Below are positions 26,260 to 31,344 of a stretch of DNA of 43,380 bases, piece by piece. The first letter of the stretch is position 1. Each line of letters begins with the position of its first letter. A model generated the notes under the pieces. The model was given only the letters and a program-made list of their open reading frames with translations, was not told the DNA's origin and did not search any database. The translations under genes were made by a program, and so were the position numbers. Source of the stretch: a virus; the IMG/VR virus record IMGVR_UViG_3300045988_083803, positions 1-43,380 of that record. The stretch is one strand, 5' to 3'.

Positions 26260-26310
26260 ATCACGCAAAATGCGTTGATTATACAAAAAACTCAGAAAGG
26301 AGAAAAATTT

Positions 26311-27165
26311 ATGAGTTTAACAAGTGAAAGTATGACTCCTGCCGATATCGCAGCCGTAACAGGTAATAACGGTAACGGAATGTGGGGTGATGGTGGTGCA
26401 TGGTGGATCATCATTCTTTTCCTCTTCGTGTTCTGCGGTTGGGGAAACGGTAACGGATGGGGAAACAACGGAGGTGCAGGCGCGGCTGATAACTACGTTT
26501 TAGCAAGCGATTTTGCAACCTTACAGCGACAGATCGACAGCTCTACAGCGTCATTAGAGCGCAAATCCGATGCAATCAACAGCGGCTTATGTGATGGCTT
26601 TTATGCGCAGAACACTACCGCATTGACTGGATTTGCAAATGTAAACCAGAACCTTTGCAATGGCTTTTCACAGGCTGAGTTATCCAGAGCCAACGGGCAG
26701 ATGAACCTCATGCAGCAGATGAACGCAAACAATATCACAGCTATGCAGAATGCAAATGCTTTGCAGTCTCAGCTTGCACAGTGCTGTTGTGATAACCGAG
26801 AAGCCATAGCAGGTATAAATTACAACATGGCGATGAATACCAATGCTTTGCAGCACAGTGTAGAATCTGGATTCTGCCAGACAAACTACAACAACGCTTC
26901 CAACACACGCGATATCATCGACAATCAGAACAGCAACGCAAGAGCTATCCTTGATGCACTGAACGCACAGCAGCTTGCAGCGAAAGACGCGAAGATTGCC
27001 GAGCAGAATCAGCAGATTTTCGGCTTGCAGTTAGCAGCATCACAGCAGGCACAGAACAACTACTTGGTTCAGACGCTTAAGCCTGCACCAGTTCCGAGCT
27101 TCCCTGCTGGACAGCTTTACGGCTATATGAACGGTTGCTGCAATCCATGCAATAGCTGTTCCTGA
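26311..27165 (+). CDS. Accessory cassette gene 4: single-pass membrane protein, Gly/Asn/Trp-flanked TM, long N/Q-rich Cys-studded region
   Basis: AAAGGAG RBS. Encodes GNNGNGMWGDGGAWWIIILFLFVFCGWGNGNGWGNNGG, has QCCCDNR, and ends GCCNPCNSCS. Confidence 0.6.
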   Translation: MSLTSESMTPADIAAVTGNNGNGMWGDGGAWWIIILFLFVFCGWGNGNGWGNNGGAGAADNYVLASDFATLQRQIDSSTASLERKSDAINSGLCDGFYAQNTTALTGFANVNQNLCNGFSQAELSRANGQMNLMQQMNANNITAMQNANALQSQLAQCCCDNREAIAGINYNMAMNTNALQHSVESGFCQTNYNNASNTRDIIDNQNSNARAILDALNAQQLAAKDAKIAEQNQQIFGLQLAASQQAQNNYLVQTLKPAPVPSFPAGQLYGYMNGCCNPCNSCS

Positions 27166-27180
27166 TAGGGGGTGGCGAGT

Positions 27181-27591
27181 ATGGCAGAATATACGTTAAC
27201 CACACCTACAGCCGTCCCTCTGGGCGGTGCAGTGCCATATACCAACACAATTATCAAGGGTTGCTGTAATATCAAGCACAGGGCAGGATCAGGGCAGGTG
27301 ACTGTCAAGGGCGGCACTTGCTGCAATCCTGCAAAGTACCTTGTGTACTTCCATGCCAACGTAACAGGGGTTGCAGGAGCAATTCAGCTTGCACTGTTTT
27401 TGGATGGCGAGAGGCTTCCAGAAACCTTGATGGCTGTTGTTCCTGCCGCTGCGACTGACGTTTGGTCAGTGAGTGCAGAAACTGAATTTTGCGTGGACTG
27501 CTGCTGTGGCACAGTCTCAGCAAGAGTAGTAGAGGGTGCAACTGTTACGATTAATACAGCAGAGATAATTGTAAAGAAGGAGGTGGCATAA
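27181..27591 (+). CDS. Accessory cassette gene 5: Cys-cluster beta-rich protein, possibly a C1q/TNF (BclA C-terminal)-like jelly roll
   Basis: GGGGGTGG RBS. Cys clusters KGCCNIKH, GGTCCNP and VDCCCGT. The fold assignment is by pattern recollection only. Confidence 0.5.
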   Translation: MAEYTLTTPTAVPLGGAVPYTNTIIKGCCNIKHRAGSGQVTVKGGTCCNPAKYLVYFHANVTGVAGAIQLALFLDGERLPETLMAVVPAAATDVWSVSAETEFCVDCCCGTVSARVVEGATVTINTAEIIVKKEVA

Positions 27592-27986
27592 TGGGAACAA
27601 TGGAAGATTTGAAGCGCATGATTTGCACAGAGCTTGAGGAAATCGCACAGAAAGGTGAAATGTCCGCAGGTGATCTTGATACAGTATACAAGCTCATCGT
27701 ATCGAAGGAAAAGCTTCTGCGCATTGACGAGCTTGAAGAAAAGCTTGGCTATAGCGAGGACGGCAGAAAATGGAGATACAGCAGAGACGGAGAGCCAGAT
27801 GGCGGTAGCAGCTATGGACGGCATTATGTGAGGGCACACTACAGCAGAGACGGCAGAGGACGCTACAGCATGGATGAAGGGCGCACGATGCTTGCAGATC
27901 AAATCAAAGATATGATTGATAACAGCGATCTGAGCCAGAGTCAGAAAGGCGCACTCAGAAAGGCAATGGAAGCTTTGCAGGAATGA
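27591..27986 (+). CDS. Accessory cassette gene 6: helical ends with an Arg/Gly/Tyr/Ser/Asp-rich centre
   Basis: GAAGGAGGTGG RBS and TAATG overlap. The centre reads YSRDGEPDGGSSYGRHYVRAHYSRDGRGRYSMDEGR. Confidence 0.55.
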   Translation: MGTMEDLKRMICTELEEIAQKGEMSAGDLDTVYKLIVSKEKLLRIDELEEKLGYSEDGRKWRYSRDGEPDGGSSYGRHYVRAHYSRDGRGRYSMDEGRTMLADQIKDMIDNSDLSQSQKGALRKAMEALQE

Positions 27987-28007
27987 TGATGGAAAGGGGG
28001 TAGAGCG

Positions 28008-28331
28008 ATGCTTGATATGGACGAGATAAAAAGTGAGATTGCACGGCTTGAAAATGGAAATATCACCTTTTCAACTGTGGAAAAGCTTGCTATGCTCTAC
28101 ATAGTACAAGAGCGCAACTCCCCTACACCAGAACCAGAGCCAATTGAGATACAGCAAATGCCAAGATATGCGTATGCAGCAGCTCCAACTGCCCCTAAAT
28201 CTGATTTTTTAGAGGCGGTTGGAAAAGTACCGATAGAAAAAGCCTTAGATGTACTGGATGAGCATATGGAAGCAATAAAGCTGCTATATCCTAAGGAGTA
28301 CAAGGCTGTGATCAGCAAGATTTTAGAGTAA
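28008..28331 (+). CDS. Accessory cassette gene 7: hypothetical protein with a Pro-rich linker
   Basis: AAAGGGGG RBS. It has the linker SPTPEPEPIEIQQ and is the last gene before the terminator. Confidence 0.5.
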   Translation: MLDMDEIKSEIARLENGNITFSTVEKLAMLYIVQERNSPTPEPEPIEIQQMPRYAYAAAPTAPKSDFLEAVGKVPIEKALDVLDEHMEAIKLLYPKEYKAVISKILE

Positions 28332-28332
28332 C

Positions 28333-28365
28333 AAAAAAAAGGCAGGGAGCTTTTAGCCCTCTGCC
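28333..28365. terminator. Bidirectional terminator between convergent gene sets (stronger on the minus strand)
   Basis: AAAAAAAA-GGCAGGGAGC-TTTTA-GCCCTCTGCC-TTT, an imperfect 10-bp stem. An 8-nt U-run results when read on the minus strand. Confidence 0.6.
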
Positions 28366-28374
28366 TTTAACTGT

Positions 28375-29058
28375 TTATCGAAAATTGATATAGCTGTGCC
28401 AAAAATATCCGTTTTTTAATCTTTCGAGATCCGATTCGTAAGTGTCAATGTCGTGATGATCTAGCTTTCCAATCAATTCCATGTATTGATATTCATATCC
28501 ATCTTCTTTCATGAGGTCTGCCATGATCTTCCATACCATAAGAGACTTAGCTTCATCGTAAGGCTTACCTTCGTACCACTCGTCTCTCTCTTCAAGCAAT
28601 CCAAGTTCTTCCGCTTTCTTTTCATACATTGGAAGAAACTGCAAATCATGCTCTGGAATTGAATCAGTAGTAATAACTTCACATGCTTTGAAATAATAAT
28701 GCTTAAAAAGTGAATTGAATTTAGACGGAATTTGACGTGGTGCGTGTTTGTGCTTGTACTGCTCGGTAAGATCAGATACTAGCGCACTCAAATCTATATC
28801 ATCTGGCATTGCACTGGTAATATAGCAATAACCGTCATTTGCGTTAAAGATACAATACCATGTGCTGCCATCTGCCTTGAACTTGAAAACGTCCAAGCTG
28901 TAGAAGCAGTTATCGGTGCAAATAATAGGGGATAACTCCAATGGTATATTGCATTTGCTTGCAGAGTCTAACAGGCTTTCTAAGCTTTCCGTGTAGCATA
29001 CCGTAACAGCAACTCCATAATGCGTTCCTTCAAATAATGGCTTTAAAAAATTTTTCAT
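28375..29058 (-). CDS. Unknown 227-aa protein, last gene of the reverse-strand operon
   Basis: ORF track entry. It starts 1 nt after the upstream stop. The region is AT-rich. No motif recognised. Confidence 0.6.
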   Translation of the reverse strand: MKNFLKPLFEGTHYGVAVTVCYTESLESLLDSASKCNIPLELSPIICTDNCFYSLDVFKFKADGSTWYCIFNANDGYCYITSAMPDDIDLSALVSDLTEQYKHKHAPRQIPSKFNSLFKHYYFKACEVITTDSIPEHDLQFLPMYEKKAEELGLLEERDEWYEGKPYDEAKSLMVWKIMADLMKEDGYEYQYMELIGKLDHHDIDTYESDLERLKNGYFWHSYINFR

Positions 29059-29059
29059 T

Positions 29060-29245
29060 TCATTGTCCTCCGTTCTTTGTTTTAAAATCTTCCTTTACCA
29101 TTCGTTCCAGTGCCAATCTAAAATAAATTGGGCACTTATTTACTCCCAGTTCCCAGTTCTGGAGTGTGCGCTTGGGGATTGAGTATAAATCCCCAAACTT
29201 TTGTTGGTTTAATCCAGTCAGCTCTCGAAGCTCCTTAACTTCCAT
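29060..29245 (-). CDS. Small XRE-type HTH protein (61 aa)
   Basis: ELRELTGLNQQKFGDLYSIPKRTLQNWELG is an XRE-type HTH. Confidence 0.7.
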   Translation of the reverse strand: MEVKELRELTGLNQQKFGDLYSIPKRTLQNWELGVNKCPIYFRLALERMVKEDFKTKNGGQ

Positions 29246-29251
29246 ATTGTT

Positions 29252-29587
29252 TTAGTTCCTTTCCTTTTTCTGACGCCAATTGTAAATTATCTTTGCGTTC
29301 TTGGAATAATGTTGACCATACTCAGGTCTTTCTCTTGGTAGATATGCACGGACACTTGATAAGCTTAACTTTACTGCCTTGGAAATATCTTCAACCCCCA
29401 CCCCTTGGCTATACAATTCAAGAATCCTTGCATGTGCTGCATTTAATACATATCCATGAGTGGCTAGACACTTGGTTATTTTGTGATGAGAACAACCAGT
29501 TTGAATTGAAATAGGCTTAACTGCTCCATACTGCTTCCACAAATCAATTATAGCTTTGTCTGTCTTACTGATTTGATCACCCATCAT
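29252..29587 (-). CDS. HTH protein (sigma-r4/LuxR-like, 111 aa)
   Basis: ARILELYSQGVGVEDISKAVKLSLSSVRAYL. ATGA overlap with the upstream gene. Confidence 0.55.
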   Translation of the reverse strand: MMGDQISKTDKAIIDLWKQYGAVKPISIQTGCSHHKITKCLATHGYVLNAAHARILELYSQGVGVEDISKAVKLSLSSVRAYLPRERPEYGQHYSKNAKIIYNWRQKKERN

Positions 29588-29814
29588 CGTTCCTCTCTAC
29601 ACTCGGCACTATAGATAAGTTTCATATCTTCTCCTGCTTCAATATAGGAGTTGTAATCTGTTAATTCACAATAGATTACTTCACCACTTGCAGTATTAAG
29701 CCATGCCTCCACATATCCGTTATATGTTGCTTTTTTTGCCATTGCTCTTGCATGTGCTGCAATTCTCTTTTTATCTGTCTTGCTGAGCACGAATCTGTTA
29801 TTTTCTTTCTTCAT
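29584..29814 (-). CDS. Hypothetical 76-aa protein, first gene of the reverse operon
   Basis: ORF track entry, downstream of the predicted promoter at 29864-29892. Confidence 0.5.
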   Translation of the reverse strand: MKKENNRFVLSKTDKKRIAAHARAMAKKATYNGYVEAWLNTASGEVIYCELTDYNSYIEAGEDMKLIYSAECREER

Positions 29815-29863
29815 TTCCCTTTACCTTACTACCTTTGGCAGTTCCTTTCTTTGTTATGACTAT

Positions 29864-29892
29864 AGTATAGCACCGATTCAGTGCTTTGTAAA
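29864..29892 (-). promoter_or_regulatory. Promoter of the reverse-strand operon
   Basis: On the minus strand: TTTACA, a 17-nt spacer, then TATACT. Confidence 0.6.
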
Positions 29893-29917
29893 GTATATAT
29901 TTGCACTTAATCAGTGC
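29870..29917. promoter_or_regulatory. Two 15-bp palindromic operator candidates (29870-29884 and 29903-29917)
   Basis: GCACCGATTCAGTGC and GCACTTAATCAGTGC share GCAC-N7-GTGC dyads with centres 33 bp apart. The first fills the promoter spacer. Confidence 0.5.
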
Positions 29918-29930
29918 TTTTTATTGATAT

Positions 29931-29982
29931 TTTTTGCTATTATGTTACTATGACAAGTGACAAGGTGACATAATAGCAAAAA
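29931..29982. repeat. Perfect 14-bp inverted repeat around a 24-bp core (attP candidate)
   Basis: TTTTTGCTATTATG (29931-29944) and CATAATAGCAAAAA (29969-29982). The right arm ends 27 bp from the integrase stop codon. Confidence 0.45.
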
Positions 29983-30009
29983 GTAAGCACAAAAAAATTG
30001 CACAAAAAT

Positions 30010-31344
30010 TTAAACAAAGTACACCTTGTCGACTGAGTGACGCTTGATCTCGATTTTCCTCACAACTCTGTGCCAGAAATCTCGCTTTCCCTGTCTTGAT
30101 AGCTGCTCGTAAATTTCCTTCCAGTTATCTGGCATCTGGCTGACTGGTAGCGCAGGTGCTGCCAAACTCTCAAGCTCCGCAAGCTGTGCTTTCAGCTCTT
30201 TTGTTTTTTCAAGATACTCAGCACGGCTCATATCACCATCAAGGTATATATCTTTCAGCCGTTCCAATCTCCCCTTGATCTTCTCAATTTTTCCCTCGGT
30301 GCTTTTTGCTTTCGCTGCAAGCTTTTGAACGCTTGCGTTATAGTCTACAATCAATTCTTCCAGATGATCTATCATGTAGCTTTCCAAATTGTGTTCCATG
30401 ATGAATGCAGCGTTTTTGCATTCTCCTCTCCGCACAGTTCTCATGCGACATTGATAGTATAGCTTTTCACTTGGTTTGCCGTAGCTTGTATAGCAAGTAC
30501 ACTTGGAACCCATCCTTGCACCACAACTTGCGCAGAAGATCAACCCTGTAAAAATATATACTCTGTCTGCTTTTGGCTGTCTGGGATAATGCTGCCTTGC
30601 TTGCTGTATAAGCTCATGTTGTGCAGGTGTGATATATCCTGGCACTGATACACCATAGTAAGTGCCGTAGTACGGCTCTTTATCAAGCAAAAAATGAGCG
30701 GTTTTCCGAGACATTTTCAAGCCCTTTTCGGCAGCTGCATCCATGGCTTGCACTGGGCTGTATGTGTTAAGATAGGTATCGAAAAAAGCTTGCATAGCTT
30801 CTTTTGTCTGAGGATCGAAGTCAATCGTAGATGCTGATGTGCGGATATATCCGAGTGGCATCTTGCCTACTATGATATATCCCTGCGATTTGCGATACTC
30901 GTTAACCGCTCTGATACGCTCTGAGGTGCGGTCTGACTCAGCTTGGGCGATGGAAAGCATGATGTTAACCTTGAAAACACCTGCGGACGTTTCCGTCTCG
31001 TAGTCCTCCCAGATAGCTCTCCAAGGCACTTTTGCGGCATCAAGCTGACTCTGTACCTCATAGTAGTCCGCAACCGAGCGAAACCATCTATCGAGCTTTG
31101 TAAAAAGGATGATATCAATTTTGTGATCTTTGCAATCCTGTATAAGTTGTAGCAGCGCAGGACGTGCTTTGTACTTCTTTCTCGCACTAATGCCTGCATC
31201 GTTGTAGATGCCTGCAACTTCCAAACTGTTCTCGCGGCAATACTTTTGCAGCGCATCAATCTGGCTATCTACTGATAAGCCGTGATCTCTTTGTTCTGCG
31301 GTTGATACGCGGACATATATAGCCGCCCTTTTCTTTCCTTCCAT
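30010..31344 (-). CDS. int: Large serine recombinase (integrase)
   Basis: AAIYVRVSTAEQ contains the catalytic Ser. Resolvase domain, recombinase domain and a Cys-rich zinc ribbon (CASCG...CTCY...YYQC), then a coiled-coil C-terminus. Confidence 0.9.
   Translation of the reverse strand: MEGKKRAAIYVRVSTAEQRDHGLSVDSQIDALQKYCRENSLEVAGIYNDAGISARKKYKARPALLQLIQDCKDHKIDIILFTKLDRWFRSVADYYEVQSQLDAAKVPWRAIWEDYETETSAGVFKVNIMLSIAQAESDRTSERIRAVNEYRKSQGYIIVGKMPLGYIRTSASTIDFDPQTKEAMQAFFDTYLNTYSPVQAMDAAAEKGLKMSRKTAHFLLDKEPYYGTYYGVSVPGYITPAQHELIQQARQHYPRQPKADRVYIFTGLIFCASCGARMGSKCTCYTSYGKPSEKLYYQCRMRTVRRGECKNAAFIMEHNLESYMIDHLEELIVDYNASVQKLAAKAKSTEGKIEKIKGRLERLKDIYLDGDMSRAEYLEKTKELKAQLAELESLAAPALPVSQMPDNWKEIYEQLSRQGKRDFWHRVVRKIEIKRHSVDKVYFV

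Follow-up and report, generated by a model that had tools for sequence, protein, structure and literature searches.

What is the function of a four-gene operon that a temperate phage carries between its lysis genes and its integrase, and that encodes two putative DNA-binding proteins together with two further small proteins? The question is raised by positions 28,375 to 29,917 of the virus record IMGVR_UViG_3300045988_083803 (IMG/VR), a stretch of 43,380 nucleotides that was analysed over its whole length and is called the window hereafter. The genes of the window follow the vegetative order of a temperate phage, with late and lysis genes on the plus strand up to position 28331 and a minus-strand set formed by the four-gene operon, a serine integrase and a CI-like repressor. 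An earlier note, made from the letters alone, had taken the operon for a defence, toxin-antitoxin (TA) or anti-CRISPR/anti-CRISPR-associated (acr-aca)-like locus whose effector would be the protein of 227 amino acids (aa). The reading that we favour, at a probability slightly above even, is that of an autonomous, negatively autoregulated accessory ('moron') operon, placed in a hypervariable post-lysin slot beside attP of a temperate phage of the Lachnospiraceae species Anthropogastromicrobium aceti. That its payload serves as a counter-defence inhibitor is suggested by analogy with acr-aca operons and AcrIIA1, and we hold this narrower assignment only tentatively, as somewhat less probable than its contrary.

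The features on which the argument rests are the following, in window coordinates.

29903-29917, minus strand: distal operator dyad (putative), GCACTGATTAAGTGC (minus-strand letters), abutting the outer edge of the attP arm
29870-29884, minus strand: proximal operator dyad (putative), GCACTGAATCGGTGC (minus-strand letters), filling the −35/−10 spacer
29864-29892, minus strand: predicted sigma-70-type promoter TTTACA-17-TATACT with a TG-extended −10, 10/12 matches
29828-29842, minus strand: hairpin of the 5′-untranslated region (5′-UTR), ACUGCCAAAGGUAGU, just 5′ of the Shine-Dalgarno of the first gene
29584-29814, minus strand: 76-aa gene, isoelectric point (pI) 7.7, deleted or swapped in some relatives
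29252-29587, minus strand: 111-aa double helix-turn-helix (HTH) gene, basic (pI 9.7), family signature AYLPRxRPxY..SxNA, constant component
29060-29245, minus strand: 61-aa XRE-type HTH gene, phrog_2104 type, pI 9.25, constant component
28375-29058, minus strand: 227-aa gene, acidic (pI 4.8, net charge about −17)
28363-29071, minus strand: exchangeable payload cassette, made of the last few XRE codons and the 227-aa gene
28338-28368: intrinsic terminator between the convergent late operon (ending at 28331) and the four-gene operon

A promoter with two putative operator dyads

The promoter is called on the conservation of its −35 and −10 elements, which are kept in the related loci L001, L004, L007, L009, L027, L030/31, L033, L035 and L036, and not on the promoter scan, whose count of promoter-like sites over the whole region (7 found, 8.3 expected) is not above chance. 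The two 15-bp dyads lie 33 bp apart, each of them one mismatch away from perfect symmetry, and the proximal one occupies the promoter spacer; promoter and dyads are where the earlier note had placed them. The motif GCAC-N7-GTGC is found four times in the window, compared with 0.56 expected, none of 100 shuffles reaching that number, and two of the four occurrences are the operator dyads. A refined operator motif gave no further good site anywhere in the phage window, so that the regulatory circuit would be self-contained. Relatives place their two dyads at about −70 and −103 from the ATG.

The design is maintained while its letters change. The operator of the window group reads GCACYGA-N-TCRGTGC and that of L030/31 GCACTCA-N-TGAGTGC, a symmetric swap present in both dyad copies; at the promoter of L027 the palindrome pair is different in sequence and in geometry (two 14-nt arms with 10 bp between them). 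In L179, a different phage, the promoter TTGACA-17-TATTAT (11/12 matches, extended −10) precedes a gene in which an XRE domain is fused to a 227-like domain (XRE~227 fusion), and its dyads, TTCCACCT-N3-AGGTGGAA and ACCACCT-N3-AGGTGGT, are 31 bp apart, the proximal one again filling the spacer. This is the same two-dyad promoter design built with a wholly different operator sequence. Because the operator architecture is kept while the sequence changes symmetrically alongside diverged regulators, autorepression is the favoured mode of control, and the co-variation constitutes good indirect evidence for it. As to the protein that would bind the dyads, 15-bp palindromes suit a small dimeric protein of the Cro/XRE kind, and the promoter of L177, the sole one examined that serves a 111-like gene only, has no dyads; on these grounds the 61-aa XRE protein is the most likely binder, on weak evidence.

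The hairpin of the 5′-UTR (−6.2 kcal/mol, z = −3.1) is conserved in diverged relatives, including L031, whose phage backbone is unrelated. A search of Rfam returned nothing above threshold, and the weak microRNA-like matches that appeared correspond to the attP inverted repeat.

A coupled operon of genuine genes

An ATGA overlap joins the 76-aa and 111-aa open reading frames (ORFs), and 1 nt separates the stop codon of the 61-aa ORF from the 227-aa ORF. The ratio of non-synonymous to synonymous substitution (dN/dS) of the four ORFs against their relatives is 0.07-0.31 (0.07-0.27 for the 76-aa ORF, 0.07 for the 227-aa ORF); all four are under purifying selection and for this reason are considered genuine genes. 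Transcription would end at a strong stem followed by a minus-strand T-run (−21.3 kcal/mol, z = −3.9), and the GC content of 0.36-0.39 over positions 28201-30000 is set off from the 0.44-0.50 of the flanks. With respect to the earlier description, the coordinates and coupling of the ORFs and the AT-richness of the region stand as given; the terminator is real, its stem being slightly displaced from the 28333-28365 assigned to it; and the HTH labels of the 61-aa and 111-aa proteins are right, although the window copies stay below threshold and it is their homologues that score better.

The 61-aa protein reaches 20.4 bits with Pfam HTH_3 (cut-off 23) and matches phrog_2104 at E = 5.8e-7, while HTH_3 scores 29.6 bits in its fused homologue P0003. 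A search of PDB sequences with it (E ≤ 1) retrieved 3mlf, 2ppx and HigA-2 only, all of them generic XRE/HigA2-like. The 111-aa protein produced matches to HTH_23, HTH_7 and GerE, all below threshold, partial HTH-region matches in PADLOC (E = 0.0066 and E = 0.025) and no match among PDB sequences. Its relatives form only eight clusters (62-99% identity) among 5.8 billion proteins, with all members on contigs of up to about 44 kb, mostly phage-sized, and a scan of species-representative genomes found none.

A constant core and an exchangeable cassette

The operon occurs in eight variants, given below as the succession of protein lengths in aa.

Window, L001, L002: 76 - 111 - 61 (XRE) - 227
L004, L007: 76 - 111 - 78 (XRE) - 79 - 190
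L009, L010: as L004, minus the 76-aa gene (in-frame deletion between direct repeats coding for SKTDK)
L033, L034: 76 - 110 - 58 (XRE) - 79 - 190
L035: 75 - 110 - 58 (XRE) - 83
L036: 75 - 110 - 58 (XRE), no payload after
L027-29: 241 - 116 - 69 - 82 - 190 - 61 (XRE last)
L030, L031: 77 - 115 - 62 (XRE), on an unrelated phage backbone, after the endolysin and next to host-like DNA

Common to all eight variants are the dyad-bearing promoter and the genes for the 111-type and XRE proteins; everything else differs. The position of the 227-aa gene, which is missing from most relatives of the window phage, is elsewhere empty or taken by an 83-aa gene or by the 79- and 190-aa genes. When the window is aligned to L036, homology ends at 29072 and resumes at 28362, 709 bp in the window corresponding to 26 bp in L036, and the left breakpoint falls directly after XRE codon 56. 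Residues 1-54 of the XRE protein are identical or nearly so (one V3I, in L033) ahead of four downstream states, one of them being no gene at all, and the tail of the window protein beyond the shared part consists of KTKNGGQ only. To judge from these alignments, the 227-aa gene does not provide a fixed effector, as had been assumed, but is one of several cassettes that can be exchanged. The head of the operon varies too, the 76-aa gene being replaced by an unrelated 241-aa gene in L027.

The direct repeat coding for SKTDK is located at the 5′ ends of the 76-aa and 111-aa genes (29545-29571 and 29760-29786). In L009 (5974-6321) and L010 the deletion between its copies, which drops the 76-aa gene, results in a 115-aa fusion.

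The 227-aa protein and its link to HTH partners

No match to the 227-aa protein was found in Pfam, PHROGs, NCBIfam, PADLOC or PDB sequences, nor with blastn and tblastn of the locus and the protein against phage and plasmid collections, nor in a single-protein scan of IMG/VR. A full HMMER search yielded 21 relatives, all unannotated, among 1.84 billion representatives, and Pfam and PHROG scans across this family matched fused HTH domains only. Structure prediction, which had been advised for this protein, was successful with an alignment of 13 sequences: the AlphaFold model has a mean predicted local distance difference test score (pLDDT) of 89.3 and a predicted template modelling score (pTM) of 0.75, and was used instead of the single-sequence model (pLDDT 44). 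It is composed of an N-terminal beta-sheet/helix domain (residues 7-81) and a helical bundle (residues 90-223), with a disordered acidic linker. Foldseek comparison of the model with PDB and BFVD gave nothing at E ≤ 1e-3 (TM-score ≤ 0.28). The protein is, in its predicted form, confidently modelled and devoid of a recognisable fold relative of known function. Resemblances of the N-terminal domain to the DcrB, EagT6, PsbP, TBP-like and RnlA-N folds are weak and not significant, and were not relied on.

Two homologues, P0010 (308 aa) and P0003 (692 aa), are fusions in which an N-terminal XRE domain of the phrog_2104 subtype precedes the 227-like domain, and both occupy post-endolysin slots of other phages. 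Full-length homologues of the 111-aa protein (35-41% identity, hidden Markov model E-values from 1e-39 to 1e-54, signature AYLPRxRPxY..SxNA shared) adjoin 227-like genes in L024-26, L119 and L177/178; a weaker 111-like match (E = 6e-6) adjoins one in L122, and in L179 a 111-like gene stands in one operon with the XRE~227 fusion. The association of the 227-aa family with the two HTH families, seen as adjacency and as fusion across unrelated elements, is thus non-random; it is strong but facultative. About 7 of the 15 227-like lineages have neither HTH partner; their genes lie in long same-strand arrays of small ORFs on large, conjugative or plasmid-like elements, one of them next to TraG/VirD4 and an orphan D12 methylase and others near recombinases, PemK and GmrSD. 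Pfam annotation of the genes around intact 227-like genes (55 neighbours) gave a few recombinases, PemK and GmrSD, one ligase and DUFs, and did not reveal the type of element.

Three independent kinds of genomic linkage to DNA-binding partners provide a concrete interaction hypothesis, in which the 227-aa protein probably works with, or under the control of, both HTH families. We propose further, as a possibility to which we give clearly less credit than to the accessory operon itself, that the 227-aa, 111-aa and phrog_2104-type XRE families constitute a mobile module that has so far gone unrecognised in Firmicutes phages and in conjugative or plasmid-like elements. The 227-aa protein would then be tethered to, or complexed with, its own regulators, and the module would represent either a new class of HTH-linked anti-defence effector, following AcrIIA1 logic with unrelated parts, or a new sensor-regulator pair.

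Several observations were made in the neighbourhood of 227-like genes. About 40 human-gut contigs (L127-L169, for example L157 3350-6407), one of them a 577-kb chromosomal contig, share the same decayed locus, in which IS200/IS605 TnpA/TnpB genes accompany a truncated, frameshifted 227-like remnant whose 3′ end is overlapped by a P0010-like XRE gene, with a small resolvase and then a 544-aa protein further on. The locus is apparently a widely distributed relic of the module. The P0003 triple fusion has a GmrSD_N restriction-type gene as its neighbour (L180 4540-5631). A Zn-ribbon protein of about 237 aa (L179 5928-6641) has an N-terminus weakly resembling that of P0003 and also resembles the product of the gene downstream of the 227-like gene in L021; blastp found no relation between it and the 241-aa protein of L027. 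A family of about 260 aa, common to L024 (1471-2253) and L123 (3933-4724) at 69% identity, is a recurrent neighbour of 227-like genes.

A probable accessory operon with acr-aca-like logic

In the model that we propose, a dimer of one HTH protein, most likely the XRE protein, would bind the dyads, and occupancy of the proximal one, inside the −35/−10 spacer, would exclude RNA polymerase. The operon would be expressed in a burst when the DNA enters the cell, and its expression in the lysogen would be limited to a low level. Small payload genes would plug in around the constant core of promoter, dyads, 111-aa gene and XRE gene, and their products would act in trans on functions of the host or of competitors.

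Near-consensus promoters with an inverted repeat (IR1) inside the core promoter, often accompanied by a second similar repeat, are characteristic of acr-aca operons, and AcrIIA1 is an HTH repressor fused to an effector (PMC9410906). The same arrangement, a core-promoter repeat with a second one 31-33 bp upstream next to a near-consensus promoter, is found in the window group, in L030/31 and in L179. The likeness extends to the genes: a gene for a small, putative HTH repressor shares its operon with small non-HTH genes on a prophage, the HTH anchor persists as the small genes beside it change, the partners are separable, and HTH-effector fusions comparable to AcrIIA1 of Listeria prophages are seen among the 227 homologues. 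Either partner, 227-like or HTH, is also found without the other, which is the acr-aca pattern and not that of an obligate complex; this facultative association speaks against a TA pair and fits what is seen in acr-aca operons and in AcrIIA1. So does the nature of the payloads, which are of small size, partly acidic and free of enzymatic domains; none corresponds to a defence model. A search of PADLOC-DB v2.0.0, which had been put forward as a check, gave no significant model match for the operon products, the alternative payloads or the recurrent neighbours. Among the options of the earlier note, the acr-aca-like one fits best, a TA pair is disfavoured and a defence system finds no PADLOC match. 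Its more general description is supported: the operon is self-contained, accessory and probably autorepressed, encodes two HTH proteins and lies between the lysin genes and the integrase. The operator design is conserved and co-varies with the regulators in diverged relatives.

A second precedent is offered by the prophages of gut Clostridia, which carry hypervariable anti-CRISPR regions at the junction with the host (PMC8545432). The regions around AcrIIA22 resemble the present locus in their human-gut clostridial host, in their position at the prophage-host junction, and in that the small genes flanking a conserved gene are not the same in closely related phages, indicating frequent recombination (PMC8545432). 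They differ in that the proteins are unrelated, the conserved genes here are regulators with clear operators, and the cassette here has defined bounds, set by the XRE 3′ end on one side and by the terminator on the other.

Several points weigh against this interpretation: (i) the XRE and 111-aa proteins both vary in every operator class, so that co-variation singles out neither as the binder; (ii) the PDB sequence search with the XRE protein (E ≤ 1) gave no match labelled Aca or AcrIIA1; (iii) the head trio exists without payload in L036 and L030/31, and the regulators or the 76-aa protein may hence have an output of their own; (iv) two regulators, XRE and double-HTH, are present instead of one; (v) the payload is downstream of the regulators, whereas the classical order is acr followed by aca; and (vi) no payload resembles a known Acr or anti-restriction protein, and no operon gene is similar to a PHROG annotated as anti-CRISPR. 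The locus would work as an accessory operon anchored by an Aca protein does, but it does not qualify as one, since the PDB sequence search showed no membership of an Aca family. Familiar in its logic, it is new in its parts, namely a dual-HTH anchor, a partner of novel fold and defined cassette boundaries.

Should the interpretation hold, the HTH families and the two-dyad promoters would become guilt-by-association anchors for counter-defence or other accessory genes in gut Lachnospiraceae phages, where almost nothing is annotated and Aca-based searches fail. The locus would also supply a compact, orthogonal repressor-operator set, several operator specificities being visible among the relatives.

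Alternative explanations

A serious rival, unlikely as we judge it, is that of a purely regulatory circuit, in which the 227-aa protein is a sensor, co-repressor or anti-repressor of the HTH pair and the output is control of host or phage transcription, a kind of lysogenic conversion through transcription factors, and not the inhibition of a defence system. The fusions that tether a 227-like domain to an XRE DNA-binding domain would be natural in such a circuit, as would the conserved adjacency of 111-like genes and the pairing of an acidic protein with two basic DNA binders; the head trio without payload implies that the regulators may have their own targets, and the prophage, lying inside spo0A (see below), already perturbs developmental regulation of the host. 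What speaks against a circuit of this kind is that within the phage the operator motif occurs only at the promoter of the module itself, that about half of the 227-like lineages have no HTH neighbour, that the slot also takes in unrelated small genes, contrary to what one would expect of a dedicated sensor, and that Foldseek found no ligand-binding or known regulatory fold.

Somewhat less probable again is that the operon is prophage cargo for defence or superinfection exclusion with a regulator of its own, in which case incoming phages would be the target of the 227-aa protein and of the alternative payloads. A variable hotspot at the prophage end with its own promoter, possibly active in lysogens, would suit such cargo, and the P0003 homologue adjoins a GmrSD-type restriction gene. 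Regulators of the BrxR/CapW type anchor varied defence systems in islands, and a regulator anchor with variable cargo fits this scheme as well: here too a conserved DNA-binding regulator with its own operator lies beside exchangeable cargo in a mobile-element hotspot. The regulators of the present locus, however, are tiny HTH proteins without a WYL or sensor domain, and the payloads (69-241 aa), for none of which PADLOC gave a match, are small and non-enzymatic, without nuclease, ATPase or other effector domains. Moreover, 227-like genes are also found in small-ORF arrays on conjugative or plasmid-like elements, a setting more typical of establishment or anti-defence genes.

A type II TA or abortive-infection module, with the XRE and/or the 111-aa protein as antitoxin and autorepressor and the 227-aa protein as toxin, is improbable. 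It would account for a small XRE gene placed directly upstream of a larger gene with a 1-nt gap, for palindromic operators over the promoter on a mobile element and for the weak similarity of the XRE protein to HigA2 and MqsA-type antitoxins; fused toxin-antitoxin proteins exist. Against it stands the XRE protein itself, near-identical over residues 1-54 before four downstream states, which leaves about 7 residues as a possible neutralising tail and no tail specific to the cargo. Co-occurrence is not obligate in either direction, since the 111-aa and XRE genes are present without the 227-aa gene in L004, L033, L035, L036 and L030/31, and the 227-like lineages lacking both HTH partners would carry a toxin lethal to their bearer. 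Finally, the 227-aa protein is acidic, unlike most toxins, its predicted fold is novel, and it matches no toxin family or fold in Pfam, NCBIfam, PADLOC, PDB sequences or Foldseek.

Position beside attP and integration into spo0A

The features concerned are two.

29918-29995: attP of the serine integrase, an imperfect inverted repeat whose 38-nt arms enclose a 2-nt centre (29956-29957)
30010-31344, minus strand: large serine recombinase integrase, 444 aa, on the far side of attP

The integrase has resolvase and zinc-ribbon domains (Resolvase 1.1e-30, Zn_ribbon_recom 1.6e-09, phrog_95 4.6e-93), which with an inverted-repeat attP and a 2-nt crossover shared with attB make up a large-serine-recombinase module. 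In the integrated copy L002, host genes run straight into the 76-aa gene and the homology between phage and prophage breaks exactly at the centre of the repeat; the host flank is 100% identical to A. aceti H6_35. The empty attB, which that A. aceti genome carries (L037), has only the central dinucleotide in common with attP. Because the L002 breakpoint and the empty attB agree on the repeat centre, the crossover is mapped to 29956-29957 (AG on the plus strand, CT on the minus strand). Since the operon abuts attP, it is the outermost transcription unit of the prophage, and in the lysogen it is read inward from a promoter situated 65-95 bp from the junction, with the integrase at the opposite prophage end.

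That the operon might serve excision, a small protein being the recombination directionality factor (RDF) of the adjacent integrase or the HTH proteins modulating the use of attP, attL and attR, an excision-type function that the earlier note had named as its own refutation, is very improbable, for although the operon abuts attP, the distal dyad touches its arm and RDFs of large serine recombinases are small, non-homologous and often encoded near the recombinase gene (the 72-aa CD1234 being one; PMC5025042), the 76-aa gene is deleted (L009/L010) or replaced (L027) with integrase and attP kept, the promoter/dyad/regulator module stands away from att sites in L030/31 and L179, and a strong constitutive-type promoter is unexpected for an RDF, which must stay silent in lysogens.

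The target of integration is spo0A. The attB crossover lies inside the A. aceti gene (L037 2758-2759, within gene 2020-2844), a 274-aa ORF with Response_reg (1.5e-23) and Spo0A_C (1.3e-44) domains. It falls at codon 247 of 274, so that the predicted Spo0A of the lysogen ends in ...TIN-SDKVT* at 251 aa; the final 28 residues, with the end of the DNA-binding domain among them, are missing from this allele, for which the phage provides no substitute 3′ end. Examples of intervening prophages in sporulation genes given in published accounts are skin in sigK, SPbeta in spsM and yin in yabG (PMC5025042, PMC4191935, PMC10747680). The present case is alike in being a serine-integrase prophage inside a sporulation gene. 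It differs in two respects: the target is the master initiator, which acts before a mother cell exists, instead of a gene that the mother cell uses late, and the 28 codons lost on integration are not made good by the phage. Limited literature searches revealed no precedent for a prophage in spo0A, the intervening elements found being those of sigK, spsM, yabG and gerE. The integration site suggests that a gut commensal could lose sporulation on becoming lysogenic, which would matter for transmission and persistence.

In L033, L035 and L036 the attP arms are the same and the central dinucleotide is GA on the minus strand rather than CT, which for a serine integrase implies a different attB or a different target allele. 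On the plus strand of the window, an outward promoter-like sequence (29924-29952, TTGATA-16-TACTAT, TG-extended, 9/12) faces, in the lysogen, the spo0A 3′ remnant and glgA across attP. A phage ATG at 29950-29952 is in frame with the spo0A remnant and would open a 30-aa ORF, MTSGKGKPTNSEFVALIADKIRLELNLFKS; given that this ATG overlaps the −10 element of the sole nearby plus-strand promoter-like site, the ORF is probably coincidental.

The convergent late genes

Four conserved late-strand genes lie on the plus strand between the lysis genes and the operon (26275-28331). Their products include a 296-aa protein (phrog_16490), with a hydrophobic N-terminus rich in Gly, Asn and Trp and with CCC/CC motifs, and a Cys-rich protein of 139 aa (phrog_20016).

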